Of a DNA stretch of 64,000 nucleotides, positions 19,872 through 52,500 are shown piece after piece. This DNA is from Candidatus Hermodarchaeota archaeon. GTDB lineage: Archaea > Asgardarchaeota > Hermodarchaeia > Hermodarchaeales > Hermodarchaeaceae. The number at the start of each line of letters is the position of its first letter. The first letter of the stretch is position 1. Under the pieces are notes generated by a model, which worked only from the letters and a program-made list of their open reading frames with translations, made no database searches and had not been told where the DNA came from. The position numbers were made by a program, and so were the translations under genes. The DNA lies in assembly GCA_016839365.1 (NCBI GenBank), contig JAEOUH010000047.1:18152-82151 (forward strand). Reading direction: 5' to 3'.

Positions 19872-19983
19872 GCCGGGATAGCCAAGTGGTTACGGCGCGG
19901 GCCTTGAGAGATGCCATGAAGTGTCATCCAAGGTAGCCTGTGACCCTACGGTCGCAAGGGTTCGAATCCCTTTCCCGGCGCCA
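19872..19983 (+). tRNA. tRNA-Ser(UGA) with 26-nt canonical (37/38) BHB intron 19909-19934
   Basis: GCCGGGA/TCCCGGC acceptor, long variable arm, TTCGAAT T-loop, encoded CCA; BHB central helix CTTG/CAAG. Confidence 0.93.
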
Positions 19984-20094
19984 TCCCACCCTATCATATT
20001 TGTCTCTTGCCCTTTTTGTTAGCGATGCAGCAAATCCGAATGTTAAAAAGTGAACAACCCTCTTGGTTTTCTGTGCTTCATCAGGTGATAATTC

Positions 20095-20517
20095 GTGGAA
20101 TACGAATACTCCGACGAAATCACATCCGACCAGCTGTTCCACGCCTATGGAACGACCCTACCGGAGGTTTTCCGAAACGCAGGAAAAGCGTTGTTCGGTG
20201 TCATGTCTGATCTAGAGGAAGTCAAGCTCGAACACGAAATCGAAGTGAAAGCTGAAGGTATTGATGAGCAACACCTACTCTATGATTGGTTGTCAAACCT
20301 GTTACTAGAATTTGAAGTCGAAGGTGTGTTTTTCGCGGATTTCTCCATCAATTTAATCGAAGAAAGGCCAGGTGAAGGATTTCACTTAGTAAGTATAGCA
20401 AAAGGAAACAAGAAAATACCAGAACTTCGAACCCACGTTAAAGGGGTGACGTTACACCGTTTCTCCCTTGAAAGAATTAATAACGGATACAGGGCTACCG
20501 TTGTAGTGGATGTTTAG
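20095..20517 (+). CDS. archease (RtcB cofactor)
   Basis: EYSDEITSD, LYDWLSNLL, VKGVTLH, C-terminal VVVDV; directly upstream of rtcB. Confidence 0.9.
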   Translation: MEYEYSDEITSDQLFHAYGTTLPEVFRNAGKALFGVMSDLEEVKLEHEIEVKAEGIDEQHLLYDWLSNLLLEFEVEGVFFADFSINLIEERPGEGFHLVSIAKGNKKIPELRTHVKGVTLHRFSLERINNGYRATVVVDV

Positions 20518-20546
20518 AATCACATATCATTAAGGGGTAATCAAGT

Positions 20547-21995
20547 ATGAAGGAAAAATTAAAGCAGCAAGACGAGTTTCGCTGGTGGCTTGACAAATCA
20601 GCGCGTCCTCGCATGAACGTCGGGGCAAAGATAATCGGTTCGAAAGAGATCATCAATACCTTAGAGGACGCAGCTGTTGAGCAACTAACCAACGTAGCAA
20701 CGCTTCCTGGTCCAATTGAACCGGTTCTGGCCATGCCTGACGCTCATTGGGGATATGGGCTTCCGATGGGAGCCGTTGGCGCTTTTGATGCTGAAGAGGG
20801 GATTATTTCCGCAGGGTGTACAGGTTTTGATATCAACTGTGGCGTCCGCCTCATTCGCACTAATCTTAGTGTTGAAGATGTCCAACCCAAGTTACAACAG
20901 CTAGTTGAGGAGCTATTTAATCGAGTTCCTGCGGGAGTCGGTTCTCAAGGTAAAATTCGATTAAGTGATAGTCAGTTTAGTGATGTTATTCGGTGGGGAG
21001 CTAAGTGGGCGATTGATAATGATCGGGGGGTACCAGCGGATTTAGCCCATTGTGAGGAAGGAGGTTATATGGAGGGAGCCGCCATGCAGGCACCTCAAGT
21101 TAGTGAAAAGGCACGACGTCGCGGACGTCCACAACTTGGTACGCTTGGAGCAGGAAACCATTATCTAGAGGTTCAGAAGGTTGAGAAAATTTTTGATGAA
21201 CCTGTTGCCAAAGTCTTTGGTCTGGAGAAAGGGCAAATAGTGGTGATGCTTCACTGTGGATCCCGTGGATTTGGCCATCAGATTGCAACCGATTATTTAG
21301 AGAGTATGGCTGTAGCAGTTAAGAAATATAACATATGGCTTCCAGATCAACAACTCGTCTGTGCACCTGCAAACTCTCCTGAAGGGCAGGACTATTATGC
21401 TGCGATGAAGGCAGCAGTGAATTTTGCCTTTTGTAACAGACAGGTTATGACCCATTGGATTCGACAAGGTTTTGAAGCGGTCTTTGGTCGAGATTGGGAA
21501 TCGCTGGGGATGCACCTTGTTTATGACGTGACGCATAATATCTGCAAGTTCGAAACCCATGAGGTGAATGGATTGAAACGCGACATGTATTTGCATCGGA
21601 AAGGTGCGACGCGCGCGTTCGGGCCAGGCAACCCCAAAATCCCTGAAGACTACCGATCAGTTGGTCAACCCGTCCTAATCGGTGGCTCAATGGGAACCGC
21701 ATCCTATGTTCTAGTTGGCACAGAACAGGCAATGAAAGAAACCTTTGGATCCACCTGTCATGGAGCAGGTCGAGCAATGTCTCGAAAAGCAGCGATTCGC
21801 AAGTATCATGGACGAGATATCAAAAACGCACTTGAAGCCAAAGGAAAAGTGGTTCGTTCCATGGGTACAAAGATACTAGCTGAAGAAGCGCCCAATGCCT
21901 ACAAAGATGTCCATGTTGTTGTAGACTCAGTCCATGGCGCGGATATCTCACGCAAGGTCGCAAGTCAGATACCATTGGGTGTTGTGAAAGGCTAG
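20547..21995 (+). CDS. rtcB: tRNA-splicing ligase RtcB
   Basis: MPDAHWGYG, GFDINCGVR, GTLGAGNHY, HRKGATRAF, STCHGAGR, AEEAPNAYK. Confidence 0.97.
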   Translation: MKEKLKQQDEFRWWLDKSARPRMNVGAKIIGSKEIINTLEDAAVEQLTNVATLPGPIEPVLAMPDAHWGYGLPMGAVGAFDAEEGIISAGCTGFDINCGVRLIRTNLSVEDVQPKLQQLVEELFNRVPAGVGSQGKIRLSDSQFSDVIRWGAKWAIDNDRGVPADLAHCEEGGYMEGAAMQAPQVSEKARRRGRPQLGTLGAGNHYLEVQKVEKIFDEPVAKVFGLEKGQIVVMLHCGSRGFGHQIATDYLESMAVAVKKYNIWLPDQQLVCAPANSPEGQDYYAAMKAAVNFAFCNRQVMTHWIRQGFEAVFGRDWESLGMHLVYDVTHNICKFETHEVNGLKRDMYLHRKGATRAFGPGNPKIPEDYRSVGQPVLIGGSMGTASYVLVGTEQAMKETFGSTCHGAGRAMSRKAAIRKYHGRDIKNALEAKGKVVRSMGTKILAEEAPNAYKDVHVVVDSVHGADISRKVASQIPLGVVKG

Positions 21996-22010
21996 GTTTG
22001 GTATTCAAGA

Positions 22011-22898
22011 ATGCTATCAAAAGAAGCTAATCAGATTCCATTTGCGATATCTATTGCCATACCAACCTCCTTCATTGACGTTGACCAAAGTCGAGAGCAA
22101 CAAACCCAGCATATCGGACGAATTGCCCGAGCTGCAGCAATCTTTCAAGTCGATGATATTATCATCTATCGGGATAAGATGAATTCAAAACAAATGAAGA
22201 ACCTACAGTTCGTCAGCCGGGTCCTTGAATATATGGAAACACCACAATATCTTCGAAAACACCTCTTTGGAAAGATGCCCGATTTGCAATACGTAGGAAG
22301 CCTCCCTCCACTTCGAACACATCATCATCCTCTTGTGAAAGAATCATCGAAGCTTCGGAATGGCGAATTTCGAGAAGGGGTGGTACTTACAGCCAAAGGA
22401 AAAAATGTTGTAGATGTCGGCGTCGAATCACCTTTACCACTCTTACAATTCAAATCCACTCATCTGCTACAACGAATCACAGTACAAATTCGAAGAGATA
22501 AATCCGGGAAAGTGACCGCACACCCGAGTTCTCCTCCTCGATCCAAACAATATTGGGGATACTCTGTCAAGGGTGTGGAATCCTCTTTGGGTGACTTCTT
22601 GGTGAAAAAAACGAATTATCCTTTCGTTATTGCTACGAGTCGGAGAGGAAGACCAATTGCGGAAGAAGCGAGTAAAATTAGAAGTCAGTGGGAGAAATTC
22701 CATCGACTACTATTGCTTTTTGGGAGCTATAAAGAGGGGCTTGCAGAGATTCTTCAGCGGGACCAAATTGATGTAGCCTCAGTTTCGAATCATATTATCA
22801 ATCTAGTTTTCAATCAGGGCACAGCAACCATTCGAACAGAGGAGGCGGTATTTATGGGGCTCTCCGCATTCAGATTACTTGAACAACTAAAGGATTAG
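22011..22898 (+). CDS. SPOUT-family RNA methyltransferase (COG2106 / SPOUT1-like)
   Basis: ARAAAIFQVD, LEYMETPQYLRK, LPPLRTHHH, QGTATIRTEEA. Confidence 0.88.
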   Translation: MLSKEANQIPFAISIAIPTSFIDVDQSREQQTQHIGRIARAAAIFQVDDIIIYRDKMNSKQMKNLQFVSRVLEYMETPQYLRKHLFGKMPDLQYVGSLPPLRTHHHPLVKESSKLRNGEFREGVVLTAKGKNVVDVGVESPLPLLQFKSTHLLQRITVQIRRDKSGKVTAHPSSPPRSKQYWGYSVKGVESSLGDFLVKKTNYPFVIATSRRGRPIAEEASKIRSQWEKFHRLLLLFGSYKEGLAEILQRDQIDVASVSNHIINLVFNQGTATIRTEEAVFMGLSAFRLLEQLKD

Positions 22899-22902
22899 CA
22901 GT

Positions 22903-23436
22903 CTATACTTCTTCTTGGATTTCTATTTGATCACTGGTGGCGATGAGAAGCTCATAGGATCCTGTACCCGTGAAATAGCCATCTCGTGTAACCTGGATTG
23001 TAATGTTGTGGTATCCTGAAGAGACATTGGGAATTCGAAGATGTAACTCGGTGGGACTGGATTCTATTTTCTGAATGGTAATGTTGAGATTTCCAAGGAA
23101 AGCCTCAAGAACCGCATTCTCTGGAATTTCGTTCTTTGGAAAGCCCACGACAACTGTTAGCTTGAGCTCTTCGCCTGGCTCTGCGACTCTGAGTTCTGGA
23201 CCCAAAACCTTGACATCAATTCGATGGCTCCAGTATACATAGCTTGCAGGAAGCAAAAAAAGTAGAAATAACACGAGATAAACGAGGGCACCTTGTAGAA
23301 TCGCTATGATGAGGTCGTCACGAACTACTATTGTGGGTGCGATGAAGGGAAGCAACAAGACTGCTACGGCTCCGTAGACGATAAGACTCCCACAAATTAC
23401 GAGGGTTAGAGTTGAACGAGGATTACTATCTGTCAC
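22903..23436 (-). CDS. hypothetical protein, two TM helices plus Ig-like domain
   Basis: Hydrophobic N-terminal helices, beta-rich C-terminus. Confidence 0.6.
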   Translation of the reverse strand: MTDSNPRSTLTLVICGSLIVYGAVAVLLLPFIAPTIVVRDDLIIAILQGALVYLVLFLLFLLPASYVYWSHRIDVKVLGPELRVAEPGEELKLTVVVGFPKNEIPENAVLEAFLGNLNITIQKIESSPTELHLRIPNVSSGYHNITIQVTRDGYFTGTGSYELLIATSDQIEIQEEV

Positions 23437-23545
23437 AGTTAAAGGGATGTTAATCTAATGCTAAATAGCATTTCGATTAAGCAACGAGTATTCTATTAAT
23501 TTTAAAGCGAATGAATTTTCCAGACTCCCTTGAAAACGTAAAATC

Positions 23546-23854
23546 TTACTTCAGGGTTATTTCGATGAAGACTTCATCGGGCACCCGGATTCGCATAATC
23601 TGGCGCATTGTCCTTTCATCAGCTTCTAAATCAATTAAGCGTTTGTGGATTCGCATTTGCCAATGATCCCAAGTTGGTGTTCCTTCTCCACAAGGTGATT
23701 TTCGCGTCTGAACTTTCAGAGTCTTTGTGGGTAAAGGAATAGGACCTGACATCTGAACACCTGTTCTGGATACAATGGATAGGACTTGGTTACAGACTTC
23801 GTTTAGCTTTGGAATGTCTGTACTGGAAAGTCGAATCCGAGCTTTCTGCGCCAT
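23546..23854 (-). CDS. rps10: 30S ribosomal protein uS10
   Basis: [26 protein letters not shown]. Confidence 0.97.
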
Positions 23855-23998
23855 ATTAACTACACCAAATTGACTTGGGAATCAACCCGAATGTTTGCTC
23901 CCTTTTAACTTTTTTTGCACACCGAAAGCGTATCCAATTGATGCACCTTGGAGAATAGAAAAAGAAAGGGAAGAAGAATAGTGATAGCAGGGCTACCT

Positions 23999-25300
23999 CT
24001 ACTTCTTCTCCTCGGTGATTTTTCGAACAACGCCTACAGCAACTGTTCGTCCACTATCCCGGATTGCAAAGCGACCTAACTGTTTCATATCTGCATAGGT
24101 CTCCAGACAGATTGGGGTAACAGGTCGGAGTTTTACTAGTGCAGATTCGCCTTGCTTAATGAAGTCGGGTTTCTCTTGTACCGTTTCTCCGGTTCGCGGA
24201 TCAATCTTAGCGACGATTTCAGTGAAGGTGGCTGCTACTTGGGCGGTGTGTGCGTGCAAAACAGGAGTATATCCTGCAGCAAGAGCACGGGGGTGGAAAA
24301 TAACGATGATTTGCCCCTCGAACTCAGACACAACGCGTGGTGGCTTATCGAGATGCCCCATCACATCGCCACGGCGAATCTCACCTTTCCCGATACCTCG
24401 GACATTGAATCCGATATTGTCACCAGGTTCAGCGCTGTCCAAGCGTTCGTGGTGCATTTCAATGGTCTTAATTTCACCTTCTTTGCCAGGTGGCATGAAG
24501 ATGACTTTGTCACCGATTTTCATTTTTCCAGTTTCAACCCGCCCCACAGGAACTGTGCCAACACCTGTGATGGTGTACACGTCCTGAACAGGAACCCGAA
24601 GGGGTTGATCAACGGGTTTGGGTGGAAGGACAAATTCATCAATTGCTTCAAGCAACGATGGTCCCTTGTACCATTCCATGTTAGAGCTGGCTTCAGTCAA
24701 CAGATCACCGGTCCATGCAGATACAGGAACAAAGTTGATCTTGCTTGGGTCAAACTGTGCACCTTTCAACAGGTCTGAGACTTCAGACTTGATCTCTTCG
24801 TACCGATCTTTCGACCAGGCGGGTGTTGAGTCATCCATTTTGTTGACGGCAACGACAAGCTGCTCGATGCCCAGAGTTCGTGCGAGGAAAGCGTGCTCGC
24901 GCGTCTGACCACCAGCACCCACGCCAGCTTCAAACTCACCCTTACGCGCTGAAACCACTAGAATTGCAGCATCAGCTTGACTGGCTCCGGTAATCATGTT
25001 CTTGATGAAGTCAGCGTGACCCGGAGCGTCAATAATAGTGAAATAGTGTTTCTGGGTCTCAAATCGGCGGAACGCAAGGTCAATGGTCAGCCCACGTTCC
25101 CGCTCTTCTTTGAGACGGTCCATCACGTAAGCGAACTTGAAGGATCCTCGATCCATCTCTTCGGCCAGCTTCTCGAGCTTTGCCATCTCTTGTTTTGATA
25201 ATGCTCCAGTCTTGTAGAGCATGTGCCCCATCAACGTTGATTTACCATGGTCTACATGACCGATGATAATTAGGTTGATGTGTGGTTTCTTTTCCGACAT
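23999..25300 (-). CDS. tuf: translation elongation factor EF-1alpha
   Basis: GHVDHGKST, ERERGLTI, DAPGH, NKMD; start moved to MSEKKPH. Confidence 0.98.
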   Translation of the reverse strand: MSEKKPHINLIIIGHVDHGKSTLMGHMLYKTGALSKQEMAKLEKLAEEMDRGSFKFAYVMDRLKEERERGLTIDLAFRRFETQKHYFTIIDAPGHADFIKNMITGASQADAAILVVSARKGEFEAGVGAGGQTREHAFLARTLGIEQLVVAVNKMDDSTPAWSKDRYEEIKSEVSDLLKGAQFDPSKINFVPVSAWTGDLLTEASSNMEWYKGPSLLEAIDEFVLPPKPVDQPLRVPVQDVYTITGVGTVPVGRVETGKMKIGDKVIFMPPGKEGEIKTIEMHHERLDSAEPGDNIGFNVRGIGKGEIRRGDVMGHLDKPPRVVSEFEGQIIVIFHPRALAAGYTPVLHAHTAQVAATFTEIVAKIDPRTGETVQEKPDFIKQGESALVKLRPVTPICLETYADMKQLGRFAIRDSGRTVAVGVVRKITEEKK

Positions 25301-25461
25301 TGTATTCAACTCGTTTTTTGCTAACTTAAGCTGGCATAAAATATGCAGGTTATGGCACATCAAGTGGGGCGTATAAAACTCTTTTGGCGTTATGGGTTCC
25401 CAGAAGGGTTCGAAAACCTGTTAGATGCCTTGTGAGATTGTCAATGTGGGAAAGGGTATTC

Positions 25462-26100
25462 CTAGCGGGCTGAGAGTGCCATGCGTTCTTTTTCTTCTCG
25501 TCGTCGTACGGCGTTGCTTCGAGAGTCGCCACTTGCAGCGGCGATGAGTTCATCTGCGATGATCTCTTCGATGGCTTCAATGGTACTGAAGCTTCGACGC
25601 CAGATGCTTTCGGAGATGAATCGAAGTGCCAAATCGATGCGACGGAGCGGAGCGACATCGCAGGCGGTGTGGTAACTTATCCCACCATATGAAATCCGCG
25701 TGGTTTCTTCACGAGGAGCTGTGTTTTCGATTGCTTCGATTAGAATTTGGAGTGGATTCTGATTAGTTCGTAGATGTATTACTTCGAAGGCAGACCGGAC
25801 TATTCGGATGACAGTGGATTTTTTCCCAGTGATGAGTCCGGATTGTCGTGCGCTTTGACTTCGTCGGCTGGCCCAACCAGGTGTCATGATGCGGTTAATG
25901 AACCGTTCGACAATTGGAACTTGGCGTTTTCCAAACCGCCGATGTTCGTGACGACCGAAAGTGTGGGGGACAATTACTGGACTAAGGCTAATGTATTTTG
26001 CTAGGCCCTGATCGCGGATTTGGATATCTTTTGTGCTCCAGCGACCAAGCACTTTGATTTCAGGAAAAGTTGTTGTCGGATTGGGAGTTTCAGCACTCAT
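25462..26100 (-). CDS. rps7: 30S ribosomal protein uS7
   Basis: GRHEHRRF, PREETTRISYGG, ERMALSAR; start moved to MSAETP. Confidence 0.95.
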   Translation of the reverse strand: MSAETPNPTTTFPEIKVLGRWSTKDIQIRDQGLAKYISLSPVIVPHTFGRHEHRRFGKRQVPIVERFINRIMTPGWASRRSQSARQSGLITGKKSTVIRIVRSAFEVIHLRTNQNPLQILIEAIENTAPREETTRISYGGISYHTACDVAPLRRIDLALRFISESIWRRSFSTIEAIEEIIADELIAAASGDSRSNAVRRREEKERMALSAR

Positions 26101-26120
26101 CTTTGATTTACACCTTTGGG

Positions 26121-26570
26121 CTAGCGTTGTGGTTTTTCGACCTTGCCAATAATCATGGCTTCGAGAGATGCACCATTGCACTTGACAACTTTCCACCGAA
26201 CACCGGGAAGGTCTCCAAATGATCTTCCGCGAGCGCCTCCAATTCCTTCGACGATGACTTCGTCGTGTTCATCGACATAAGTGAGTGCACCATCACCAGG
26301 GAGAAAGGCTGTGATTTGCCTGCCATTGCGAATTAATTGTACGCGCACACATTTGCGGATTGCTGAGTTTGGTTGTTTTGATTCAATACCCACTTTCTCT
26401 AAAACGATGGCACGTGCTTGTGGGCTTCCTTCAAGTGGGTCGGCCTTGACATCAAGGCGTAACATCCGCCGTTTATAATATCGATCTTTCCAGCGGAACT
26501 TCTTACGCTTTTTCTTCAGGGTGCGGCCAGCAAATTCTCCTGATGGTGATTTTGATCCAGGCAATCTCAC
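26121..26570 (-). CDS. rps12: 30S ribosomal protein uS12
   Basis: [25 protein letters not shown]. Confidence 0.97.
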
Positions 26571-27626: not shown

Positions 27627-28841
<1,215 letters not shown>

Positions 28842-35868: not shown

Positions 35869-35977
35869 TGGCGCCCGTTCCGGGATTCGAACCCGAGTCC
35901 TAGGAGATCCGCAGACCCATGAATCATCATTGATCGTTGACAGTCCCAGATGATAGACCTGGCTACACTAAACGGGC
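35869..35977 (-). tRNA. tRNA-Asp(GUC) with 31-nt canonical intron 35907-35937
   Basis: GCCCGTT/AACGGGC acceptor, TGGGA-CT-GTC-A...C-TCCTA anticodon arm, CCA; BHB helix CTGT/GCGG. Confidence 0.92.
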
Positions 35978-36048: not shown

Positions 36049-36181
36049 TGGTCCCGGCGCCCGGATTTGAACCAGGAACCATCTGGTGTCTGCGTTGGTT
36101 GACACCCAGTCATTGCCATGATGGCTCGGGGTGCGGTGTATACCTACAGCCAGACGCTCTACCAGGTTGAGCTACGCCGGG
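36049..36181 (-). tRNA. tRNA-Tyr(GUA) with 56-nt canonical intron 36088-36143
   Basis: C1-G72 acceptor CCCGGCG/CGCCGGG, TCTGG-CT-GTA-G...A-CCAGA, CCA; BHB helix CTGT/GCAG. Confidence 0.93.
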
Positions 36182-36780: not shown

Positions 36781-37371
36781 ATGGTAGAGGAAAACGAACA
36801 GCATTCTTCAGAAGAGGAGCGCCTTCCGCTTCCTGATGAGCCTATTCCAGCGAGATTAACTCGGGGAAAAGTAGTGGTTGAAGGTGAGTATGCGTCTGTG
36901 CTCTATGAGGCGGGGTATTATGGTACGATCAAGGGTGAGCAGAAATTAGAACTTGAGCCCGAAGAAGCGCTCTTATTGGCTCGGCGACAGCGTATAGCGG
37001 TGAGTCTGCCACAAAAGGAGGTGCTGGAATTTTCTTCGCTGCTGATGCGCTTATCAGAGGGGCAGCCGGGACTTTGGACTCGTTTTCTTGTATACAGTGA
37101 TCTTCGAAGCCGAGGGTATGTAGTGCGGACGGGGTATGGGAAAGGATTGTTGTTCCGCGTATATCCAAGAGGAGCTAAGATCAATGAGGCAACTGCTCAG
37201 TATTTTGTTTGCGCGATTTCCGAGGGCTCTCCCTTGAAGGTGGAAGAGCTGGATGCGTTTAGCAAACAGGCGAAACGTAACCGGAAGAAGTTGATGCTTG
37301 CTGTGTTAGACCGGCAGGGGGAGACGACGTACTACCTTGTGTCTCCTGCTGATATTGTTGCGGAAAAATAG
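36781..37371 (+). CDS. endA: tRNA-splicing endonuclease subunit, probably the structural (non-catalytic) subunit
   Basis: YYG, EEALLL, FLVYSDLRSRGYVVRTG, RKKLMLAVLD...TYY; catalytic His position reads ATA. Confidence 0.85.
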   Translation: MVEENEQHSSEEERLPLPDEPIPARLTRGKVVVEGEYASVLYEAGYYGTIKGEQKLELEPEEALLLARRQRIAVSLPQKEVLEFSSLLMRLSEGQPGLWTRFLVYSDLRSRGYVVRTGYGKGLLFRVYPRGAKINEATAQYFVCAISEGSPLKVEELDAFSKQAKRNRKKLMLAVLDRQGETTYYLVSPADIVAEK

Positions 37372-37387: not shown

Positions 37388-37510
37388 TGGCGGGCCCGCC
37401 GGGAATTTCGACGTCAACGTTATCGATCGTATTCGAACCCGGGGTTACCAACTTAGGAGGCTGGCGCCTTCTCCGGGGAAGAAGAGCCTATCCGGCTTGG
37501 CCACGGGCCC
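37388..37510 (-). tRNA. tRNA-Arg(CCU) with two non-canonical introns: 20a/21 (37471-37489, 19 nt) and 59/60 (37405-37431, 27 nt)
   Basis: Removing both BHB introns (helices CCGG/CCGG and TTCG/CGAA) gives a 77-nt cloverleaf with CCA. Confidence 0.9.
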
Positions 37511-38350: not shown

Positions 38351-38427
38351 TGGAGCCTCGGGCGGGATTTGAACCCGCGACCCTCGCCTTACCAAGGCGA
38401 TGCGCTACCACGCTATGCCACCGAGGC
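38351..38427 (-). tRNA. tRNA-Thr(GGU), intronless
   Basis: GCCTCGG/CCGAGGC, TCGCC-TT-GGT-AA-GGCGA, CCA. Confidence 0.95.
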
Positions 38428-38440: not shown

Positions 38441-38623
38441 TGGTGCCGAGGGCGGGCGTTTCGTGAAGCCCTACAGGCTTCAGTTCGATCCCGCGACCTC
38501 CAGATTTCTCCGGTGCGCCAGCAATCATCATATTTTGACCCTGGGGCAAAGCCCTATGAGTATCGCCCTGACATTTCAAGAATGTTCCAAGTCTGGCGCT
38601 CAACCAGGCTAAGCTACCTCGGC
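38441..38623 (-). tRNA. tRNA-Met(CAU), elongator-type, with three introns: 30/31 (38562-38592), 37/38 (38506-38554), 59/60 (38458-38483)
   Basis: 183-nt gene minus 31+49+26 nt gives a 77-nt cloverleaf GCCGAGG...CCAGA-CT-CAT-AA-TCTGG...CCTCGGC-A-CCA; each intron has BHB geometry. Confidence 0.87.
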
Positions 38624-38793: not shown

Positions 38794-38904
38794 GCGGGGG
38801 TATCTCCCCCGATAGAGACCCCACAGCCAAGCTTGGTCAAAGGCGCAGGACTTAAGATCCTGTCTCGTAGGAGTTCCCGGGTTCGAAGCCCGGCCCCCGC
38901 ACCA
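38794..38904 (+). tRNA. tRNA-Leu(UAA) with 23-nt BHB intron at position 8/9 (38802-38824)
   Basis: GCGGGGG/CCCCCGC acceptor, CAGGA-CT-TAA-GA-TCCTG, long variable arm, CCA; BHB GGGG/CCCC with bulges GT|A and AC|A. Confidence 0.88.
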
Positions 38905-39005: not shown

Positions 39006-39080
39006 GCCTCCGTAGCATAGTGGTGGTGCTTTGGCCTTGTAAGCCAATGGTCCCGGGTTCAAATCCCGGCGGAGGCTCCA
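39006..39080 (+). tRNA. tRNA-Thr(UGU), intronless
   Basis: GCCTCCG/CGGAGGC, TTGGC-CT-TGT-AA-GCCAA, CCA. Confidence 0.95.
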
Positions 39081-39334: not shown

Positions 39335-39470
39335 GGGCCGGTAGTCTAGTTATCCGGTTACAACTTGTGCTGGACTAGAGCGGTATGATGCGAGAAGGAA
39401 AACGGGTTCTGTTTTTCTCGCAAAGTTTGGGACCTCGTGGTCCCGAGTTCAAATCTCGGCCGGCCCACCA
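39335..39470 (+). tRNA. tRNA-Pro(UGG) with two non-canonical introns: 17/17a (39352-39380) and 30/31 (39395-39424)
   Basis: Removal at BHB sites (CTAG/CTAG; TGCG/CGCA) gives a 77-nt cloverleaf with CGAGG-TT-TGG-GA-CCTCG and CCA. Confidence 0.88.
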
Positions 39471-41481: not shown

Positions 41482-41546
41482 GCCACCAACGAGGACGAAT
41501 CCGAAGACTATGATCTGATGATGATTCGTGCAAATTTGTGGCAACA
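41482..41546 (+). ncRNA. H/ACA pseudouridylation guide hairpin (probably first unit of a longer RNA extending to about 41780)
   Basis: Lower stem GCCAC/GTGGC, pocket CAACGAGG/GCAAATTT, upper stem ACGAATC/GATTCGT, K-turn (GA-AGA...TCT-GAT-GA), ACA 14 nt from the pocket top. Confidence 0.78.
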
Positions 41547-41805
41547 CTGGAGCAGCGTTGAGGGTTATGCGGCATGTGACAGGCTCCTGCATGATTTAAG
41601 ACGTGTCGTCAAGAGGTGACTGTGGGGGCAACCCACGATGTCCACACTTCAACGCCGGGTCGCATAGGCTCACAATGCCCGACATATTAAGAGAGGACTC
41701 GTCGGAGGAATGAAGGCGCTCCGCCCACCGATGATGATGGGGCGTTAGTGTATCGGTCAGCAGAGCAGAAGCGACCCATCACTTCTCTATATTATCATCA
41801 TTCAG

Positions 41806-44451: not shown

Positions 44452-44464
44452 CAAGGTGACGATT

Positions 44465-45764
44465 ATGGGAACAAATGCAGAAGGTACTGGTACTACGAAG
44501 TATTGTATTCATGGTAAAATCGAGATAGATGGAGTAGTTGAGACCCCCGATGTTGTAGGTGCTCTCTTCGGTCAAACGGAGGGCCTACACTTCATATCGG
44601 CGATGTGAAGGGGTAATCGGTGAAGATTTAGATCTAAGAGAATTACAACAGTCGGGGCGGATTGGTCGAATAAAAGTCGAGCTTCACACTGAGAGTGGAA
44701 AATCAAAGGGCACTATCACTATCCCATGTAGCCTAGATCGGACGGAAACTGCAATCCTTGCTGCAGCAATGGAAACAGTGGACAGAGTTGGTCCTTGTGC
44801 GGCTAAAATAACCCTTGAAAAACTCGAGGATGTCCGCGAAGAAAAGCGGCAACAAATCGTAAATCGTGCAGTAGATTTGCTACGGGATTGGGAAGGGGAA
44901 ATCTCTCCAGATTCTCAGGAAATGACGGATACGGTTCTTCAACAGGCACGTACTGCAGAGATTATCAAACTCGGCAAAGAAAAGCTGCCTGCAGGGCCGG
45001 AGGTAGAGATATCAAAGACCATTATCATCGTAGAGGGTCGAGCAGATGTCTTAGCCCTGTTGAGATCTGGTGTCAAGAACGCTGTTGCAGTTGAGGGGAC
45101 ATCGGTTCCCAAATCTATTGCTGACATTGCCAAGGGGAAAACCGTGATTGCATTTCTCGATGGAGATCGTGGTGGGGATCTAATTCTAAAGGAGCTTGCA
45201 CAAACCATCAAGGTTGATTATGTGGCTAGAGCACCTACTGGTAGAGAGGTAGAAGAACTCACTCACAAAGAGGTTACTAAAGCTCTCCGTAATAGGATTC
45301 CAGCAGGGCAGATTTTAGGAAAAGCGCCAGCTAAGGCGAAGCCAAAGGAGAAGAAGCGTACCCGTCGGACCCCCGAGAAGATCAAGAAACCGCGTCGCAC
45401 AACAACGCGTACCACCTCTCGCATTACCACACGAACGAAAGTTGAAGCAAAACCAGAGCCAAAGGTGAAGGATTTGGGAATCCCAGAGCCGGTGCTTGAT
45501 TCGGCTCAAAAGATTCAACGGACGATGATGGCAGTCATCATGGACGAGAAGTTTAAGCAATTAAAGGAGACTCATGTGGGTGAACTTGCTAACGATTTGC
45601 AGGAACTTGATAAGGCTAAAGTGCTTATCCTTGATGGCGTTGTAACACAACGCCTTATTGATATTGCCGAAGATCGTGGCGTCGAATTAATTATTGGGGT
45701 GCGAGTTGGCAATATTGTGAAGAAACCGGCGAAAATGCGTATCCACACTTTCGATGAACTGTGA
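44465..45764 (+). CDS. dnaG: archaeal DnaG (primase-like, exosome-associated); join(44465..44588,44617..45764), 423 aa after splicing
   Basis: AAGGTGA RBS + ATG 44465: [41 protein letters not shown], continuing in another frame as [18 protein letters not shown]...VEGRADV...FLDGDRGG. Confidence 0.92.
44589..44616 (+). other. predicted 28-nt BHB intron in dnaG mRNA
   Basis: GCCT-AC|A-CTTCATATC-GGC-GATGTGAAG-GGGT-AA|T; excision restores frame and CTA CTC GGT GAA GAT (LLGED). Confidence 0.85.
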
Positions 45765-45868: not shown

Positions 45869-46141
45869 ATGAAGCTCATTCGAATCCTACAGGTTCTTGG
45901 CATTATCTTCCTGTTAGCGGCAGGATTCGTTGCCATTACGAACCTGGTTCTGGATATTCCATGGGATCAAGCGTCAGCAATAATTCTCCTTTCTTATTTG
46001 CTCATTTGTGGTCTGAGTTTCGGCATAACAGGTCTTATGAGCGACAATCCTGAGAGAACCCGAAGACTGTTGGTCGAATGGTTTATTGTTGTGGCAGCGA
46101 TTCTTATTTGGGTCGTAGGAGTGTACGCTTTACTTCCTTGA
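45869..46141 (+). CDS. small membrane protein (3 TM)
   Basis: Hydrophobic ORF directly upstream of atpD. Confidence 0.55.
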   Translation: MKLIRILQVLGIIFLLAAGFVAITNLVLDIPWDQASAIILLSYLLICGLSFGITGLMSDNPERTRRLLVEWFIVVAAILIWVVGVYALLP

Positions 46142-46150
46142 GGGATTACT

Positions 46151-46804
46151 GTGTCTGAATCGGTCGGAATCATTGCAGGAGTTCGCCCGACACGGATGGA
46201 ATTACTCACCCTCAAAGAACGAAGAGAACTAGCCGCGCGAGGTTATGAACTGCTCCGTGAGAAGCAAGATGCGCTTGTTCGTGAATTCTTTACAATTCTA
46301 TCAGAGGCAAAGAAATTCAGAGAAGAAATGGAATCAACTCTTGCTGAAGCTTATGTTTCATTACTTAACGCAAAATTAGTTGAAGGCGGAGCAAAACTCG
46401 AAGAACTTGCCTTGGGAGCAAAAAGCCCACTTGATTTTGAAGTTGAGACACGAAATACGATGGGTGTTACGGTTCCAATTTTTAGAATCACAGAGCAGGA
46501 AGAATCAGTTCAGCTGCATTACAGTCTGGCAGGAACTTCTGCTACTGTAGATAAAGCGGCCCAAAAGGTTCGATTGGCGCTAGATAAGGTTGTACGACTC
46601 GCAGAGATTGAGGCAACGGTTAAACGACTTGCAGCGGAAATTGAGAAAACGAAACGGCGCGTCAATGCACTCAACTATGTGGTTCTTCCGCGAATTAACA
46701 ACACAATTCGATATATCGAGTTGATGTTGGAAGAACAGGAAAGAGAAGACCTCTTTCGGATGAAGCGAGTTAAAGCGATGCTTGAGCGAAAAGCAAACGC
46801 ATAG
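46151..46804 (+). CDS. atpD: A/V-type ATP synthase subunit D
   Basis: PTRMELL, GYELLREKQDAL, EIEKTKRRVNALNYV. Confidence 0.95.
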   Translation: MSESVGIIAGVRPTRMELLTLKERRELAARGYELLREKQDALVREFFTILSEAKKFREEMESTLAEAYVSLLNAKLVEGGAKLEELALGAKSPLDFEVETRNTMGVTVPIFRITEQEESVQLHYSLAGTSATVDKAAQKVRLALDKVVRLAEIEATVKRLAAEIEKTKRRVNALNYVVLPRINNTIRYIELMLEEQEREDLFRMKRVKAMLERKANA

Positions 46805-46811
46805 ACTGAAT

Positions 46812-47204
46812 CTACTTTTCAGTTAGAGCGATTATTGCCCTAGCAAGATTGCCCTCAGCGCCACGTAAAGCTTCACGTGCTTCATCCTCTGATACATTTG
46901 CTTGGTTAGCTACGAGTTGGACATCTTCTTCAGTAAATGTTTGGGAAGTGGTTACAGGAGTAGCCTCTTCTGCTTCAGATGAGATTGTAAGATTCCTTTC
47001 CTCCGATTTTCCTACAATTTGGAAGACATCATCATCTTGTGCCTGCATCTTTATTACCTGAGCCTCAGGAATAACTAATTCTCTATCAGAAAAACGAATA
47101 AGAACCTCTGTAACATCTTCAAGTTGTTGGAAATCAACACCCATCCGACGCATCTGTCGTTCCATTGAGCGTTTTTTTGACTTTACTTTCTTTACCTTTA
47201 CCAA
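46812..47204 (-). CDS. nac: nascent polypeptide-associated complex protein
   Basis: MRRMGV NAC domain and C-terminal UBA (EEDVQLVANQ...GNLARAI). Confidence 0.9.
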   Translation of the reverse strand: MVKVKKVKSKKRSMERQMRRMGVDFQQLEDVTEVLIRFSDRELVIPEAQVIKMQAQDDDVFQIVGKSEERNLTISSEAEEATPVTTSQTFTEEDVQLVANQANVSEDEAREALRGAEGNLARAIIALTEK

Positions 47205-47252
47205 AGGGTATCCCTCAAGCAGTTACAGCATCGCATAACTGGCTGAACAAAT

Positions 47253-47735
47253 TTAGCTTTTTTGTTTACCAGTCGAGTGACGGATCTTTACAGCTACTCC
47301 ACGGGTTAGATCTAACATTTCTTGAGGACTAAGACTGGCCCTTCCAACGGCAAGCAATCTATCTTGACCATCAACAACTATTACCTCATCACCAGCGCGA
47401 AGCTGTGGATCTACTGCTATAACATGCTTGGCAAAGACGCTACGACCCTCTGAAATGAATGGGGCCACCTCTTGGACCACAACTACTCTGAGTTTGGGAA
47501 AAGGTATTGCGTTGTGCAGTCGTCGAGCTCCTTCGATGGTAAGAACAAGGAACCCGTCATGTGCGCGAATAGTAGCAAGAATCTGTGCATTAAAAATAAC
47601 CCGGCGAATTCGACCAGAGCTTTTTGAAATCTCCACCTGACAATTGTCAGGAAAAACCTGGTGTCCGATTGCTGCTCGAAATTGGTAGTTAGCAATTCCT
47701 CGTACTCGATACAATCTTTCATTGATTTGCGACAT
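47253..47735 (-). CDS. PUA-domain RNA-binding protein (TgtA C-terminal-like)
   Basis: IANYQF, GRSVFAKHV, LRAGDEVIVV, GVAVKIR. Confidence 0.88.
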   Translation of the reverse strand: MSQINERLYRVRGIANYQFRAAIGHQVFPDNCQVEISKSSGRIRRVIFNAQILATIRAHDGFLVLTIEGARRLHNAIPFPKLRVVVVQEVAPFISEGRSVFAKHVIAVDPQLRAGDEVIVVDGQDRLLAVGRASLSPQEMLDLTRGVAVKIRHSTGKQKS

Positions 47736-47762
47736 AATTCGCCTCGTCTTCTTTTCAACGGG

Positions 47763-48968
47763 CTATCCATAAATGTCTGTCGCGTCACCGTGGTCGCCGA
47801 TCATGCCTAAGACTTTGCTAATAGCCTTATCAAAGTCTTCTTTTTGTACTAAATCACGAAGCTCACGGATAGCAAACATTCCAGCTTCGGTGCATATTGC
47901 CTTCAAATCTGCCCCAGATGCGCCATTTGTTTTTGAAGCAAGCAGACTGACATCCACATCTGATTCGATATTCATGTTTCGCATATGAATTTTAAGAATT
48001 TGAACACGCGCTTCTTTATCGGGAAATGGAAATTCGATGATACGATCAAACCTTCCAGGTCTTGTAAGAGCTGTGTCAAGGATATCAGGACGATTGGTTG
48101 CTGCGAGTATACGCACGTCACCGCGTGGATCAAATCCGTCGAGCATACTAAGTAGTTGCATGAGTGTTCTTTGAACTTCTCGGTCTCCACTCGTGGCGAT
48201 ATCAAGGCGGCGACTCGCAACGGCATCTAGCTCATCGATAAAGACAATACTTGGTGCTCGTTTACGAGCCATAAAGAAAATCTCTCTAACAATTCGTGCC
48301 CCCTCACCGATGAACTTTTGGACAAGTTCAGAACCAATGACACGAATGAATGTTGCCTTCGTTTCATTAGCAACTGCGCGGGCTAGGAGAGTTTTTCCAG
48401 TTCCAGGAGGACCACAGAGAAGTACGCCTTTTGGTGGCTCGATTCCCACCTTCTCAAATAGTTCTGGATGAAGAAGCGGAAGTTCAACAGTTTCACGGAT
48501 TTCTTCGATTTGTTCTTCCAACCCCCCAATATCGTTATAGGTGACATCTGGACTTTCTTCAACGTTCATGGCTTGAACAAAAGGATCGATGGACATTGGT
48601 AAGACATCGACTACGGCCAAAGTTCTTTGGTTCAATGCCACTTTAGCCCCAGACTCAAGCTGGCTCCCAATTATCGATTCTGGATAATTGACTACAAACT
48701 GGGGTCCTGTGCTACTTTTGACAATGACCCTTCCATCGTCAAGAATATCAATTACAGTTGCAGAAACTAAGGGTGGTTGCCGTAACTTATTGAGCTCTGC
48801 TTGAAGGATTCGAACTTCGTTTTCCAGTCGTGTTCGTTCTGCTGCAAGTTGTTCTCTTTCCAATTCGAGTTCGCGAACACGTTGCTCAAGTAAAAATGTC
48901 CGTTCAGCCAAACTCATATAATCGTCAGAAGAAACCGCTTTCTTACGTAAATCTGTTGAATCGGTCAT
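47763..48968 (-). CDS. pan: proteasome-activating nucleotidase
   Basis: Coiled coil, OB domain, GPPGTGKT, C-terminal HbYX (IYG). Confidence 0.96.
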
Positions 48969-49109
48969 TGCAAGTTCTCTGAGTCGTACGCGCTAAAAGC
49001 TTTTTTTATTCCTCCATCAGAAGTTGTAGACCTTCTGTGAGATTATTAAAATGAAAAGAACTTTTTAGATTATGGCGGGTAATAAATAGAATGGTGGCGA
49101 TTGCGCAAA

Positions 49110-49619
49110 ATGCCAACCTGTGAGATTTGTGGTCGTGAATGTCATTCGACAAGGGAAATCGCCCTTGAGGGCGCCCACCTGCATGCTTGTAGTCGGTGTG
49201 CAGAGCTGGGAAAACCAGTTCAGCAGAAGAAGAAACTAGGATACGAACCTCCAGCCGACCTGAAACGCCGGCCTGTTCATATACCACGCGAAGTCCGACC
49301 TGGACCACTTCGAGAGCCAGCTCGCGAATTGGTACCTGTGGAGGACTTCACTAAACTTATTAGAAAAGCACGTGAGCAACGAGGAATGGCTCAAAAGGAT
49401 GTCGCTCGTGCTCTAAATGAGCGAACTTCCGTTATCACAAAAGTTGAAAGTGGCAAAATGGCACCTACAATTAGTTTGGCGCGGAAATTAGAGCGACTAT
49501 TCAAATTGATATTACTTGAGGAATCGGAATCAGTTGACCTTCCTCCTGTTCATTCTCAAAGTTCAGCAACACTCGGAGACGTTGTTCAGATTCGACGCAA
49601 AAAAACCTCTTCTAAATAG
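49110..49619 (+). CDS. mbf1: multiprotein bridging factor aMBF1
   Basis: CEICG...CSRC Zn ribbon, HTH, TLGDVV tail. Confidence 0.92.
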   Translation: MPTCEICGRECHSTREIALEGAHLHACSRCAELGKPVQQKKKLGYEPPADLKRRPVHIPREVRPGPLREPARELVPVEDFTKLIRKAREQRGMAQKDVARALNERTSVITKVESGKMAPTISLARKLERLFKLILLEESESVDLPPVHSQSSATLGDVVQIRRKKTSSK

Positions 49620-49663
49620 ATTGTTAAGTAAGAACCGTGAGTTGTAACAGGCTGGATATTCGG

Positions 49664-50230
49664 ATGAGCGCACCTAAATGGAGGATTACTGTACTCAAGC
49701 TGGATCACCGTCCCGAGCGCGATAAACGTCTTACAACTCATGTGGGATTAACGGCCCGTGCATTTGGTGCGAGCGAGTTTTGGTCAGCTGGACTTAAGGA
49801 TACAAATATCATGGATACAATCCAGCAGGTTTCTAATCAATGGGGTAAGAAAGATTTCATAGTACTTACAGGTGTCAAATGGAAGACCCGTCTTCGTCAA
49901 TGGAAGGAGGAGAATGGGGAAGTCATTCATCTTACCATGTACGGACTTCACGTAGATGATGTAATTGATGATATTCGTCGCTCACAGCAACCGAAACTCG
50001 TTGTTGTAGGAGGTCCTAAGGTTCCGAACCAAATATACCAGTTAGCTGATTACAATGTAGCTGTTGGTCATCAACCCCATAGTGAAGTGGCAGCACTTTC
50101 AATCTTTTTAGATCGGCTGTTTGAAGGGCAAATGCTTCGCTGGGAATTCCCTGATGCCGTGCTACGAATCCAAGCAACCTCACATGGGAAACGGATAATC
50201 GAAGCCGAAGAAAAAAAAAGGGCGATTTAA
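49664..50230 (+). CDS. trm56: tRNA (cytidine56-2'-O)-methyltransferase aTrm56
   Basis: HRPERDKRLTTHVGLTARAFGA, HLTMYG, QPHSEVAAL. Confidence 0.95.
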   Translation: MSAPKWRITVLKLDHRPERDKRLTTHVGLTARAFGASEFWSAGLKDTNIMDTIQQVSNQWGKKDFIVLTGVKWKTRLRQWKEENGEVIHLTMYGLHVDDVIDDIRRSQQPKLVVVGGPKVPNQIYQLADYNVAVGHQPHSEVAALSIFLDRLFEGQMLRWEFPDAVLRIQATSHGKRIIEAEEKKRAI

Positions 50231-50297
50231 TCCTTAACTTTTTTTTGTTAAACGAAAAGGTCTTTATTTAATGCAAGGGTAGGTTATCCGTAAATCT

Positions 50298-50807
50298 ATG
50301 TCTGGACGTGAGATGCTAATTAAGCAGGTTGTCATTGAATTCGCCGGTGAAGACGCATTTGAAGTGGTTTCACACCTCAAAGAAGATGAAGAAACAACGG
50401 ATGAGGAGATTGCCAACGAAACTGGTATGCGCCTCAACGCTGTTCGAAAGATCCTCTACAAACTTTATGACCTTCATCTAGCGTCCTATCGCCGTACCCG
50501 CGATAAACAAACCGGATGGTTTGTCTACTACTGGATATTGGAACCTGAACGCATCCATGACCTACTCCATGAAAAGAATACAAAGGTCCTTGAACGATTA
50601 AAGCAACGACTCCTTTACGAGACAGAAAACACGTTCTACCATTGCAAGAACAACGGCTGTCCCCGCCATACCTTTGAGGAAGCTATGGCTAATGCCTTTA
50701 AATGTCCTACATGTAATGGCCAGCTGGTTCATGTTGACAATCTACAAATCATAAAGTTGCTTAAAACACAGATCGAGACCCTTGAACAAGAAATGAAACA
50801 CAACTAG
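50298..50807 (+). CDS. tfe: transcription factor E alpha
   Basis: TDEEIA...VRKILYKLY winged helix, GWFVYYW, Zn ribbon FKCPTC. Confidence 0.93.
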   Translation: MSGREMLIKQVVIEFAGEDAFEVVSHLKEDEETTDEEIANETGMRLNAVRKILYKLYDLHLASYRRTRDKQTGWFVYYWILEPERIHDLLHEKNTKVLERLKQRLLYETENTFYHCKNNGCPRHTFEEAMANAFKCPTCNGQLVHVDNLQIIKLLKTQIETLEQEMKHN

Positions 50808-50874
50808 AATAGACGCCACCTTTTTGTCTTCAAGAAGCCTTTTTAGGTTGGCGTTGAACATCACACAACAGATA

Positions 50875-50983
50875 GGGCCGATAGTCTAGCTATCTGAGAG
50901 GAGGCTATTCTCTTGGACTAGAAGGCTATGATATCGCGTTTACACCGCGATGGTCGGGGGTTCGAGTCCCTCTCGGCCCACCA
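50875..50983 (+). tRNA. tRNA-Val(UAC) with 32-nt BHB intron at 17/18 (50892-50923)
   Basis: GGGCCGA/TCGGCCC, TCGCG-TT-TAC-AC-CGCGA, CCA; BHB CTAG/CTAG with bulges CT|A and AA|G. Confidence 0.9.
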
Positions 50984-50995
50984 AAGAACCCTTTT

Positions 50996-51457
50996 ATGAA
51001 GACAGCTCAAAGGCGTCGAAGCGGAGATGAATGTTTGCCAGATAAAGGTAAGAAACTCTGGTTTACCCGGTTTGTATTATTCGGAGGCGTCTACGACATA
51101 GTCTTAGCCTTGACTTTTCTCTTCTTTACACCGATAGTTTCAATTCTTCTCAATTACCCGATTTCGATTCTATCTGCGGCGCTCCTTCAGATCATCGGCG
51201 CGTTTCTGATAGGTTTTGGTTTGGCATTGCTCGTAGCAGCAAGAAATTTAGATCAGCAACTCATCATCCCGATCGCCAACATTCCCGCTCGAATAATTGC
51301 CGCTGTTGTTCTCATGTACTATATTTTTCTAGGGTTACCGTTTACTCTGCTTGTGTTGGGAATCATTGAAGGTCTCTTTGGCATTGTTTACACCATCTTC
51401 ATCCTTGCCATTCCTGAGTACACATTCCGCTCGGTTTTCAAGAATGCGCCAACATAA
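50996..51457 (+). CDS. hypothetical 4-TM membrane protein; start probably downstream
   Basis: Hydrophobic ORF between two tRNAs. Confidence 0.6.
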   Translation: MKTAQRRRSGDECLPDKGKKLWFTRFVLFGGVYDIVLALTFLFFTPIVSILLNYPISILSAALLQIIGAFLIGFGLALLVAARNLDQQLIIPIANIPARIIAAVVLMYYIFLGLPFTLLVLGIIEGLFGIVYTIFILAIPEYTFRSVFKNAPT

Positions 51458-51497
51458 CCTTCTTAAATAACGCAGTTTTAACAAGGAAACAATGTGT

Positions 51498-51583
51498 GCC
51501 GAGGTATCCTAGCCTGGTAGGGAGCAGGCCTGCTAAGTCTGTGTCCATCGGACTCACGAGTTCAAATCTCGTCCTCGGCGCCA
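51498..51583 (+). tRNA. tRNA-Ser(GCU), intronless
   Basis: GCCGAGG/CCTCGGC, CAGGC-CT-GCT-AA-GTCTG, long variable arm, CCA. Confidence 0.95.
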
Positions 51584-51624
51584 CTCTTACTAAATTCAGA
51601 ACACCTCATGAAAAGCTGAATACT

Positions 51625-52119
51625 ATGCCGTTTACCCCCTTCCATTTAGGTCCAAGCCTGCTGATTGGATTGATACTCTTTCCCTACCTATTTCTACCCA
51701 GCATCCTCCTTGGGAGCATCATCGTGGACGTTGAACCACTCGCCTTCCTTCTCCTCGGTTTACCAGTACAACATTTATTCTTTCATACTTTCTTGGGAGC
51801 CACCATCTTAGCTCTGATTGGGGCCCTTGTAATCTATCTTCTTCGAGGCATCTTTGAAAAGATAATGGCATCCTTCCTTCTCCCGCAAACAGCTTCGCCA
51901 TTGAACATCACTGCCGCGGCCCTAATCGGCGCTTACTCACATATCCTGTTAGACGGCTTCTTATATCCTGAAATGCAGCCATTCTGGCCACTGTTAGGAA
52001 ATCCCTTTCTTGGTCTTGTATCGTCTTCAACGATCTATCTTTTCTGTGTCTTATGCTTCATTATTGCTATTCCAGTTTACATCTTTCAGATTTGGCGTGT
52101 AAAACAGCACCCTAAGTAA
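51625..52119 (+). CDS. membrane-bound metal-dependent hydrolase-like protein
   Basis: MPFTPFH, DVEP, HLFFHTF, SHILLD, PFWP motifs. Confidence 0.8.
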   Translation: MPFTPFHLGPSLLIGLILFPYLFLPSILLGSIIVDVEPLAFLLLGLPVQHLFFHTFLGATILALIGALVIYLLRGIFEKIMASFLLPQTASPLNITAAALIGAYSHILLDGFLYPEMQPFWPLLGNPFLGLVSSSTIYLFCVLCFIIAIPVYIFQIWRVKQHPK

Positions 52120-52151
52120 ACATTATATATTGCGGAGTTGTGTGAGCTGAA

Positions 52152-52500
52152 TGGACGGTGAGCCTAGGCGGGGGGCTAGAAGCCCCGCAGCGCCGCTACG
52201 GGCTGGCTAAGGCTCCCCTGCACCGCAAACGCTCTATACGGCGGGCTGAATGCCGATGTTAGGCTTTCTGACCTGTTGTACGACTCACTGTTTAAGGCTG
52301 TGACGATCCGCCTCGGAGGATCGCTGGTGGCGGTAGGCTTTTCGTAGGAAGGGCTGAATCGTCTTTATCAGGTGAAACCAGCGAGGCCCGGGAGGGAGCA
52401 GCGTAAGCCTGTACTGTAGATGCTTCCGAGATCCGGGTCTGAGACCTGACTGTGAGTACGGCTTCAGGGAGGGTTGACGACCGTCGGGGTTCATCGTCCA
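52152..52500 (+). ncRNA. ffs: SRP RNA (7S) with predicted 31-nt BHB intron 52180-52210
   Basis: Terminal helix TGGACGGTGAGCC/GGTTCATCGTCCA; helix 8 GC-GAGG-CCC-GGGA-GGG-AGCA-GC; helix 6 GTAG tetraloop; TATA TTATATAT upstream. Confidence 0.92.
52180..52210 (+). other. predicted 31-nt BHB intron in the SRP RNA Alu domain
   Basis: GGCT-AG|A-AGCCC...GGGCT-GGCT-AA|G; excision yields GGGGGGCTAGGGCTCCCC whose loop TAGGGC pairs with GCTCTA (52231-52236). Confidence 0.8.

Follow-up and report, generated by a model that had tools for sequence, protein, structure and literature searches.

Introns in the pre-mRNA of cbf5 were reportedly found in Desulfurococcales and Sulfolobales by Watanabe in 2002 and by Yoshinari in 2006, and Sugahara is said to have described multi-intron tRNA genes of Thermoproteales in 2008. 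Within the literature that we searched, the cbf5 intron of Crenarchaeota (Yokobori 2009, PMC2738675) is the sole archaeal coding-sequence intron cited up to 2025, and for the RNA of the signal recognition particle (SRP) only the permuted gene of Thermoproteus has been described (Plagens 2015, PMC4731332). Very high loads of tRNA introns are known from the Asgard groups Atabeyarchaeia and Freyarchaeia (Valentin-Alvarado 2024, PMC11291895; bioRxiv 10.64898/2026.10.13.758758). SRP is not mentioned in PMC11291895, and Hermod, SRP, mRNA, dnaG, and cbf5 are absent as words from bioRxiv 10.64898/2026.10.13.758758; no description of an intron in an SRP gene, dnaG, or an EF-2 gene was found in the literature searched. 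Here we analyzed a stretch of 64,000 nucleotides (nt), hereafter the window, from Candidatus Hermodarchaeota archaeon (GenBank assembly GCA_016839365.1, contig JAEOUH010000047.1, positions 18,152 to 82,151; G000:C19:18152-82151 in our numbering of this 2.23-Mb genome). An earlier note on this DNA had proposed 14 short introns bounded by bulge-helix-bulge (BHB) motifs in tRNA genes, the SRP RNA gene, and dnaG, with Thermoproteales as the comparison. The traits of the introns are indeed similar to those of Thermoproteales, but the lineage is Asgard (Hermodarchaeota), in which heavy tRNA-intron loads have already been published; the nearest DnaG relatives of the window protein share 75-93% identity with it.

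The 14 inserts (12 in tRNA genes and one each in the SRP RNA gene and dnaG; 19-56 nt) were all found at the positions proposed. We consider it probable, at roughly 0.85, that all of them are archaeal BHB introns removed via the tRNA-splicing route, which would thus serve pre-tRNAs, SRP RNA, and three mRNAs, namely those of dnaG and, elsewhere in the genome, cbf5 and an EF-2 paralog. The support consists of the anatomy of the sequences, the conserved sequence restored by excision, conservation and covariation, intronless alleles in outgroups, and the presence of the enzyme genes. By itself the BHB motif is common (208,054 loose matches genome-wide); the signal lies in its exact placement, such that removal of the insert recovers a tRNA, the SRP consensus, or a conserved protein motif. 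Pairing of the central 4-bp helix is complete (4/4) in 12 of the 14 window introns and in those of cbf5 and the EF-2 paralog, and 3/4 in the 37/38 and 59/60 introns of tRNA-Met. Both flanking helices, the exon-side helix (h) and the intron-side helix (h'), reach at least 2 bp in the Ser, Arg 59/60, Met 30/31, Met 37/38, Met 59/60, Leu, Pro 30/31, and Val introns. Relaxed forms are found in Asp and Tyr, which have no adjacent h', and in dnaG, SRP, cbf5, the EF-2 paralog, Arg 20a/21, and Pro 17/17a, in which h has 0-1 bp. The mRNA and SRP introns therefore combine a strong central helix and an intron hairpin with almost no exon-exon helix (relaxed, HBh'-like). Small introns of this kind are normally confined to tRNA genes. 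As far as sequence can tell, the SRP, dnaG, cbf5, and EF-2-paralog RNAs very probably depend on the tRNA-splicing enzymes for cutting and rejoining.

The SRP RNA gene contains one of the two non-tRNA inserts of the window.

52156-52496, plus strand: SRP RNA gene (Rfam RF01857, Archaea_SRP, 123.7 bits), with a 31-nt BHB insert at 52180-52210 in the loop of helix 3

In the Rfam alignment of this gene, 32 nt of the helix-3 loop remain unaligned. The insert can be folded with a central helix GGCT/GGCT, bulges AG|A and AA|G, and an inner helix of 5 bp. Excision of 52180-52210 at the bases predicted from the BHB joins GGGGGGCTAG to GGCTCCCC; at the corresponding site, two other Asgard families whose SRP RNAs have no intron read GGGGAGCTAGGGCTTCCC and GGGAAGCTAGGGCTCTCC. 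Judged from this alignment, the predicted excision product has the same architecture as the intronless Asgard SRP RNAs, with a helix-3 loop that matches to the base. The 17 SRP genes found in the family, from 16 genomes, all have the 31-nt insert. Their BHB cells are 100% paired, and three one-sided changes across the family keep the pairing. A second Asgard family (three genomes, of which two are single contigs of 2.8 Mb; L129, L130, L141) has an unrelated SRP intron of 30-31 nt with a strict hBHBh' motif (outer helix 8 bp, inner helix 4-7 bp). This intron lies in the same helix-3 loop, 2 nt downstream of the Hermodarchaeota site, and its excision gives a mature sequence identical to that of Hermodarchaeota.

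It could be argued that the SRP insert is no intron but a lineage-specific expansion hairpin kept in the mature RNA, since genuine extra hairpins are found between helices 3 and 4 in other Asgard SRP RNAs (families f7, f10, f18), the RNase P RNA of the same genome has non-BHB inserts of 25 nt and ~58 nt, and the SRP insert offers neither double covariation nor junction RNA. However, the insert interrupts a conserved tetraloop, the BHB cut sites give the intronless sequence exactly, and the same loop in the second family carries a textbook hBHBh' of unrelated intron sequence with an identical mature product. An expansion hairpin is thus quite unlikely, and we prefer the intron. The RNase P RNA mentioned above (G000:C80:3030-3407, L249) is 378 nt long against a model of 288 positions; a BHB was looked for at its inserts, a 25-nt hairpin near the 3' end and ~58 extra nt in P12, and none was found.

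The gene dnaG is interrupted close to its start.

44465-44588, plus strand: dnaG exon 1, from ATG 44465 to the codons for FGQTEGL
44589-44616, plus strand: predicted dnaG intron, 28-nt BHB, with central helix GCCT/GGGT, 9-bp inner hairpin, 3-nt loop, and 1-bp outer helix
44617-45764, plus strand: dnaG exon 2, encoding the Toprim domain

The frame that opens at ATG 44465 ends in TGA, and the remaining protein is encoded in another frame. When 44589-44616 is removed, the region of the conserved FGQTEGL motif is brought into one frame, and an uninterrupted FGQTEGLLGxELD[LI]RELQ is encoded in 13 genomes of other Asgard families. The insert was found at the identical base in 14 of 14 genomes of the same genus and 3 of 3 of the sister genus sampled, with a length of 28, 29, or 31 nt among the genomes of the family. 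A coding stretch could not vary in length by one or three bases between two exons that are both conserved. Among 16 sequences, 96.9% of the BHB cells were paired and three pairs were changed on both sides, as compared with 39-55% pairing in slid controls. An unspliced dnaG mRNA would give a peptide of only 47 residues, which would make splicing obligatory for DnaG.

The gene cbf5 (G000:C6) has a 40-nt BHB intron that separates INLD from KPPGPTSH, with 12839^12880 as the predicted junction. At 40-43 nt and with the central helix retained, this intron occurs in every genome of the genus that was sampled; the 42-nt versions (e.g. L223, L225) contain in-frame stops, and in the sister genus cbf5 runs through precisely this site without an intron. 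In the EF-2 paralog (G000:C47/C86), a 31-nt BHB intron lies within the RGITI switch-I motif, between RRG and ITIKS, and the predicted junction on C47 is 14910^14878. It was found in 11 of 11 genomes examined with compensatory helix changes, the central helix covarying between GAGG/CCTC and GGGG/CCCC. The three breaks in dnaG, cbf5, and the EF-2 paralog each resemble a frameshift in the track of open reading frames (ORFs), and archaeal cbf5 introns were formerly taken for frameshifts (PMC2738675). Pseudogenes, assembly errors, or programmed ribosomal frameshift sites are nevertheless highly improbable as explanations, because the inserts are located at the same base in 11-17 independent assemblies, differ by 1-3 nt in length among relatives whose exons are both intact and conserved, fold as BHBs with compensatory changes, include in-frame stops in cbf5, and are exactly absent from the outgroup alleles.

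Two observations on these genes are added here. In two relatives (L231-L234; G043:C9 and G091:C30), Cbf5 is encoded in an open frame of 836 residues in which ~1.6 kb separates its halves; this additional insert is probably an intein, on top of the BHB intron. The end of G000:C47 and G000:C86:14-44 overlap within the intron of the EF-2 paralog. Since the first exon is on C86 and the overlapping ends fall in the intron, the break in the assembly lies at the intron or close to it.

The earlier note had expected more mRNA introns elsewhere in the genome, cbf5 first, and had suggested a genome-wide BHB search combined with detection of frameshifts. A naive scan for BHBs whose removal fuses two open frames gave 2,643 hits, 126 of them with compact hairpins; they were mostly intergenic hairpins, and the scan was dropped as uninformative since it missed both cbf5 and the EF-2 paralog. 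For a homology screen, an Asgard genome of another family, a single contig of 1.42 Mb, supplied 2,036 long ORFs for comparison with this genome, and displaced weak exons were sought beside the 1,779 strong matches by a local weak-exon search. This screen revealed three frame-shifting mRNA introns, those of dnaG, cbf5, and the EF-2 paralog; they scored 82-102, and the reversed-sequence control reached at most 41. Since the screen was limited to genes that the reference also has and to exons of at least ~14 residues, the number of three is a lower bound. In-frame introns gave no excess: a BHB-like match was present at 76 of 811 insertions of at least 5 residues relative to the reference genome, as compared with 72 and 79 in shifted controls. 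The expectation of further mRNA introns was thus borne out, while the description of a general splicing system was generously worded; RtcB, archease, and a two-subunit EndA are encoded, but there are three mRNA introns and no in-frame excess.

No second copy of any intron was found in the genome, and matches between introns were at most 9-11 nt long. Of the introns outside tRNA genes, those of dnaG, cbf5, the EF-2 paralog, and SRP were compared among relatives and proved stable over the genus or the family. Because the intron sequences are unique and stable in relatives, it overstates their mobility to speak of a family colonising different RNAs, as the earlier note did. By their sequences, the introns are a structural type and not a mobile sequence family. 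That they are self-splicing or remnants of mobile elements and are removed without EndA and RtcB, for which one may point out that the enzymes are assigned to the inserts by inference only, is the least probable explanation of all, since 19-56 nt is far below the size of group I or II ribozymes, the BHB geometry recognized by EndA is common to all inserts, and none has a second copy in the genome.

The window contains 11 tRNA genes, of which eight have introns and three are intronless.

19872-19983, plus strand: tRNA-Ser(TGA), 37/38 intron of 26 nt (19909-19934), central helix 4/4, outer 7 bp, inner 4 bp; directly upstream of the archease and RtcB genes
35869-35977, minus strand: tRNA-Asp(GTC), 37/38 intron of 31 nt (35907-35937), relaxed, central helix 4/4, outer 7 bp, inner 0
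36049-36181, minus strand: tRNA-Tyr(GTA), 37/38 intron of 56 nt (36088-36143), relaxed, central helix 4/4, outer 7 bp, inner 0
37392-37510, minus strand: tRNA-Arg(CCT), 20a/21 intron of 19 nt (37471-37489) and 59/60 intron of 27 nt (37405-37431)
38351-38427, minus strand: tRNA-Thr(GGT), intronless
38445-38623, minus strand: tRNA(CAT), Met or Ile2, introns at 30/31 (38562-38592, 31 nt), 37/38 (38506-38554, 49 nt), and 59/60 (38458-38483, 26 nt)
38794-38900, plus strand: tRNA-Leu(TAA), 8/9 intron of 23 nt (38802-38824)
39006-39080, plus strand: tRNA-Thr(TGT), intronless
39335-39470, plus strand: tRNA-Pro(TGG), introns at 17/17a (39352-39380, 29 nt) and 30/31 (39395-39424, 30 nt)
50875-50983, plus strand: tRNA-Val(TAC), 17/18 intron of 32 nt (50892-50923), strict hBHBh', outer 5 bp, inner 10 bp
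51498-51583, plus strand: tRNA-Ser(GCT), intronless

Four introns are located at position 37/38, two each at 30/31 and 59/60, and one each at 8/9, 17/17a, 17/18, and 20a/21; ten of the 12 have a fully paired central helix (4/4), and the other two have 3/4 pairs. When spliced in silico, all eight interrupted genes gave normal tRNAs of 73-86 nt with the expected anticodons, which ARAGORN labeled Ser-TGA, Asp-GTC, Tyr-GTA, Arg-CCT, Met-CAT, Leu-TAA, Pro-TGG, and Val-TAC. On the unspliced window, ARAGORN called three tRNAs by default and eight when canonical introns were permitted, and Rfam detected eight at the gathering score and two slightly below it. The remaining genes were identified by BHB-guided splicing in silico, hand reading, and a search for a 7-bp acceptor stem plus T-arm. 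Since there are only 27 Rfam tRNA matches across the whole genome, many more interrupted tRNA genes are likely to be hidden. In tRNA(CAT), the 5-bp outer helix of the 37/38 intron cannot form until the 30/31 intron has been removed, from which it follows that splicing would be ordered.

Two other readings of these loci were set aside. The tRNA(CAT) gene was considered as Pro(TGG) with one 80-nt intron that has no inner helix, and this was rejected since the window already has a Pro(TGG) and the three-intron version has better BHBs; tRNA-Asp was considered as Ile(GAT) with a 33-nt intron. The introns of tRNA-Asp (35907-35937) and tRNA(CAT) (38506-38554) have the C-box-like AUGAUGAUU in common, and these two introns may be carriers of guide RNAs. 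In at least seven of the eight interrupted genes, the 3' CCA is encoded in the genome as ACCA or GCCA past the acceptor stem.

The genes for splicing and processing enzymes are listed below.

20095-20517, plus strand: archease, activator of RtcB (Pfam PF01951, 112 bits)
20547-21995, plus strand: RtcB RNA ligase (Pfam PF01139, 567.9 bits), adjoining the archease gene
36781-37371, plus strand: EndA paralog, predicted structural (beta-like) subunit (Pfam PF01974 and PF02778), located between tRNA-Tyr and tRNA-Arg
59645-60532, plus strand: RNase Z for tRNA 3' processing (TIGR02651, 346.6 bits, above the cut-off)
62829-63371, plus strand: ThpR/LigT 2H phosphoesterase (TIGR02258, 144.7 bits, above the cut-off)

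All five enzymes that had been named before were confirmed by Pfam and TIGR profiles, but RNase Z and ThpR lie outside 19872-52500, the range given for the observation, and the EndA of the window is predicted to be non-catalytic. In an alignment to the EndA of M. jannaschii (1a79), the catalytic Tyr and Lys are present and His is replaced by Thr; this protein would therefore be a structural subunit. The genome has two PF01974 matches, and the second EndA (G000:C43:37410-37664) has the full Tyr/His/Lys triad. It aligns end to end with the alpha subunit of A. pernix (3p1z_B, 160 bits) and keeps the Lys of the specificity loop, a stretch that is ungapped (PLDVEKPRG in A. pernix and PLGIRKPKT here). 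From these alignments, the EndA of this genome is assigned to the (alpha-beta)2 type with a Crenarchaea-type L1 specificity loop. An (alpha-beta)2 EndA with an L1 loop has been assigned to Asgard and TACK archaea and tied to the cleavage of relaxed motifs (Kaneta et al., PMC5829648). The relaxed HBh'-like form of the mRNA and SRP introns would need such a broad-specificity EndA, and their exon-side helix of 0-1 bp fits the type encoded. Trm56, Trm5/Tyw2, and an ArcTGT-like PUA protein are encoded as well.

We infer the actual cleavage and ligation as well as the enzymes responsible, and propose the following route. The precursor RNA would fold with two 3-nt bulges on either side of a 4-bp helix, the two-subunit (alpha-beta)2 EndA would cut after the second base of each bulge, and RtcB with archease would join the exons; RtcB would probably also circularize the intron.

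RNA material was available as the assembled contigs of two small metatranscriptomes, of which one belongs to the source study and the other to a different one. Several points weigh against the proposal that all 14 inserts are spliced introns. No contig of the two metatranscriptomes spans any predicted junction, and no circular intron was found among them. The genome is a metagenome-assembled one, 84% complete in 93 contigs. Two tRNA introns have a central helix of 3/4, two canonical ones have no adjacent inner helix, and the tRNA(CAT) locus also admits the reading described above, a Pro(TGG) gene with a single 80-nt intron. In the SRP intron, no double compensatory change was found among the 17 genes of the 16 genomes, and a G-G mismatch adjoins the bulge in the exon-side helix. 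The SRP RNA contigs, whose depth is up to ~200, begin at 52213 (behind an adapter) and 52217, and none covers 52156-52212; a start just past the intron is at most a weak hint of splicing. For dnaG, there is one metatranscriptome contig, which contains exon 2 only. The metatranscriptomes also contain an abundant unannotated RNA at 41491-41769, in the gap between a cytidylyltransferase-like gene and trm5. This RNA has two UGAUGA boxes and is covered by contigs of both studies at depths of 72.7 and 4.6; it gave no Rfam family match.

If the inserts are introns, one Asgard lineage has three conserved, obligatory mRNA introns and an SRP intron, and a second Asgard family has an SRP intron of its own. 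Since mRNA and SRP introns are present in Asgard families, splicing of the tRNA type would not be confined to tRNA in the archaea that are closest to eukaryotes. It follows for annotation that dnaG, cbf5, and the EF-2 paralog of these genomes will be recorded as frameshifted or truncated, and that about one third of the tRNA genes of the window escape standard tools. The dnaG intron is family-wide and the cbf5 intron is limited to one genus, which provides dated gain or loss events for studies of intron origin.

In eukaryotes, the HAC1 and XBP1 mRNAs are spliced by Ire1 together with a tRNA ligase or RtcB under the regulation of stress. The hairpin of the mRNA introns described here is conserved, their exon-side helix is weak, and their hosts are proteins that we take to handle RNA (the exosome-associated DnaG, the pseudouridine synthase Cbf5, and the EF-2 paralog), so that synthesis of these proteins may be gated by the activity of EndA and RtcB. 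That the introns are regulatory rather than neutral, and act as a protein-only checkpoint comparable to HAC1/XBP1, is a speculation that we regard as rather unlikely; if true, it would place a protein-only checkpoint of mRNA splicing in the closest prokaryotic relatives of eukaryotes. The likeness to HAC1/XBP1 lies in the predicted removal of a short mRNA intron by proteins only, the joining by a tRNA ligase, and the change of frame. In contrast, the endonuclease and the recognition motif are different, and stress regulation is a feature of HAC1/XBP1.

The crenarchaeal cbf5 intron (PMC2738675) is a close match to the mRNA introns: both are short BHB introns in a coding sequence, a hetero-oligomeric tRNA-splicing endonuclease acts there and is predicted to act here, gain or loss occurs between close relatives, and the host gene is RNA-related. 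The present case differs in its Asgard lineage, in the three genes affected in one genome, and in dnaG and the EF-2 paralog, which are unreported as hosts in the literature searched. The tRNA genes resemble those of Thermoproteales and of Atabeyarchaeia and Freyarchaeia in the non-canonical positions in the D-arm, anticodon stem, and T-loop, in having several introns per gene, in the BHB boundaries, and in the failure of standard annotators to find many of them. Those reports treat tRNA only. The tRNA load is lower here, with 3 of the 11 window tRNAs intronless. As in the permuted SRP RNA of Thermoproteus (PMC4731332), the SRP transcript is predicted from its sequence to need BHB cleavage and ligation. 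Unlike the Thermoproteus gene, which is circularly permuted and gives a circularized RNA, the SRP gene of Hermodarchaeota is collinear and carries an internal intron in the helix-3 loop of the Alu domain.

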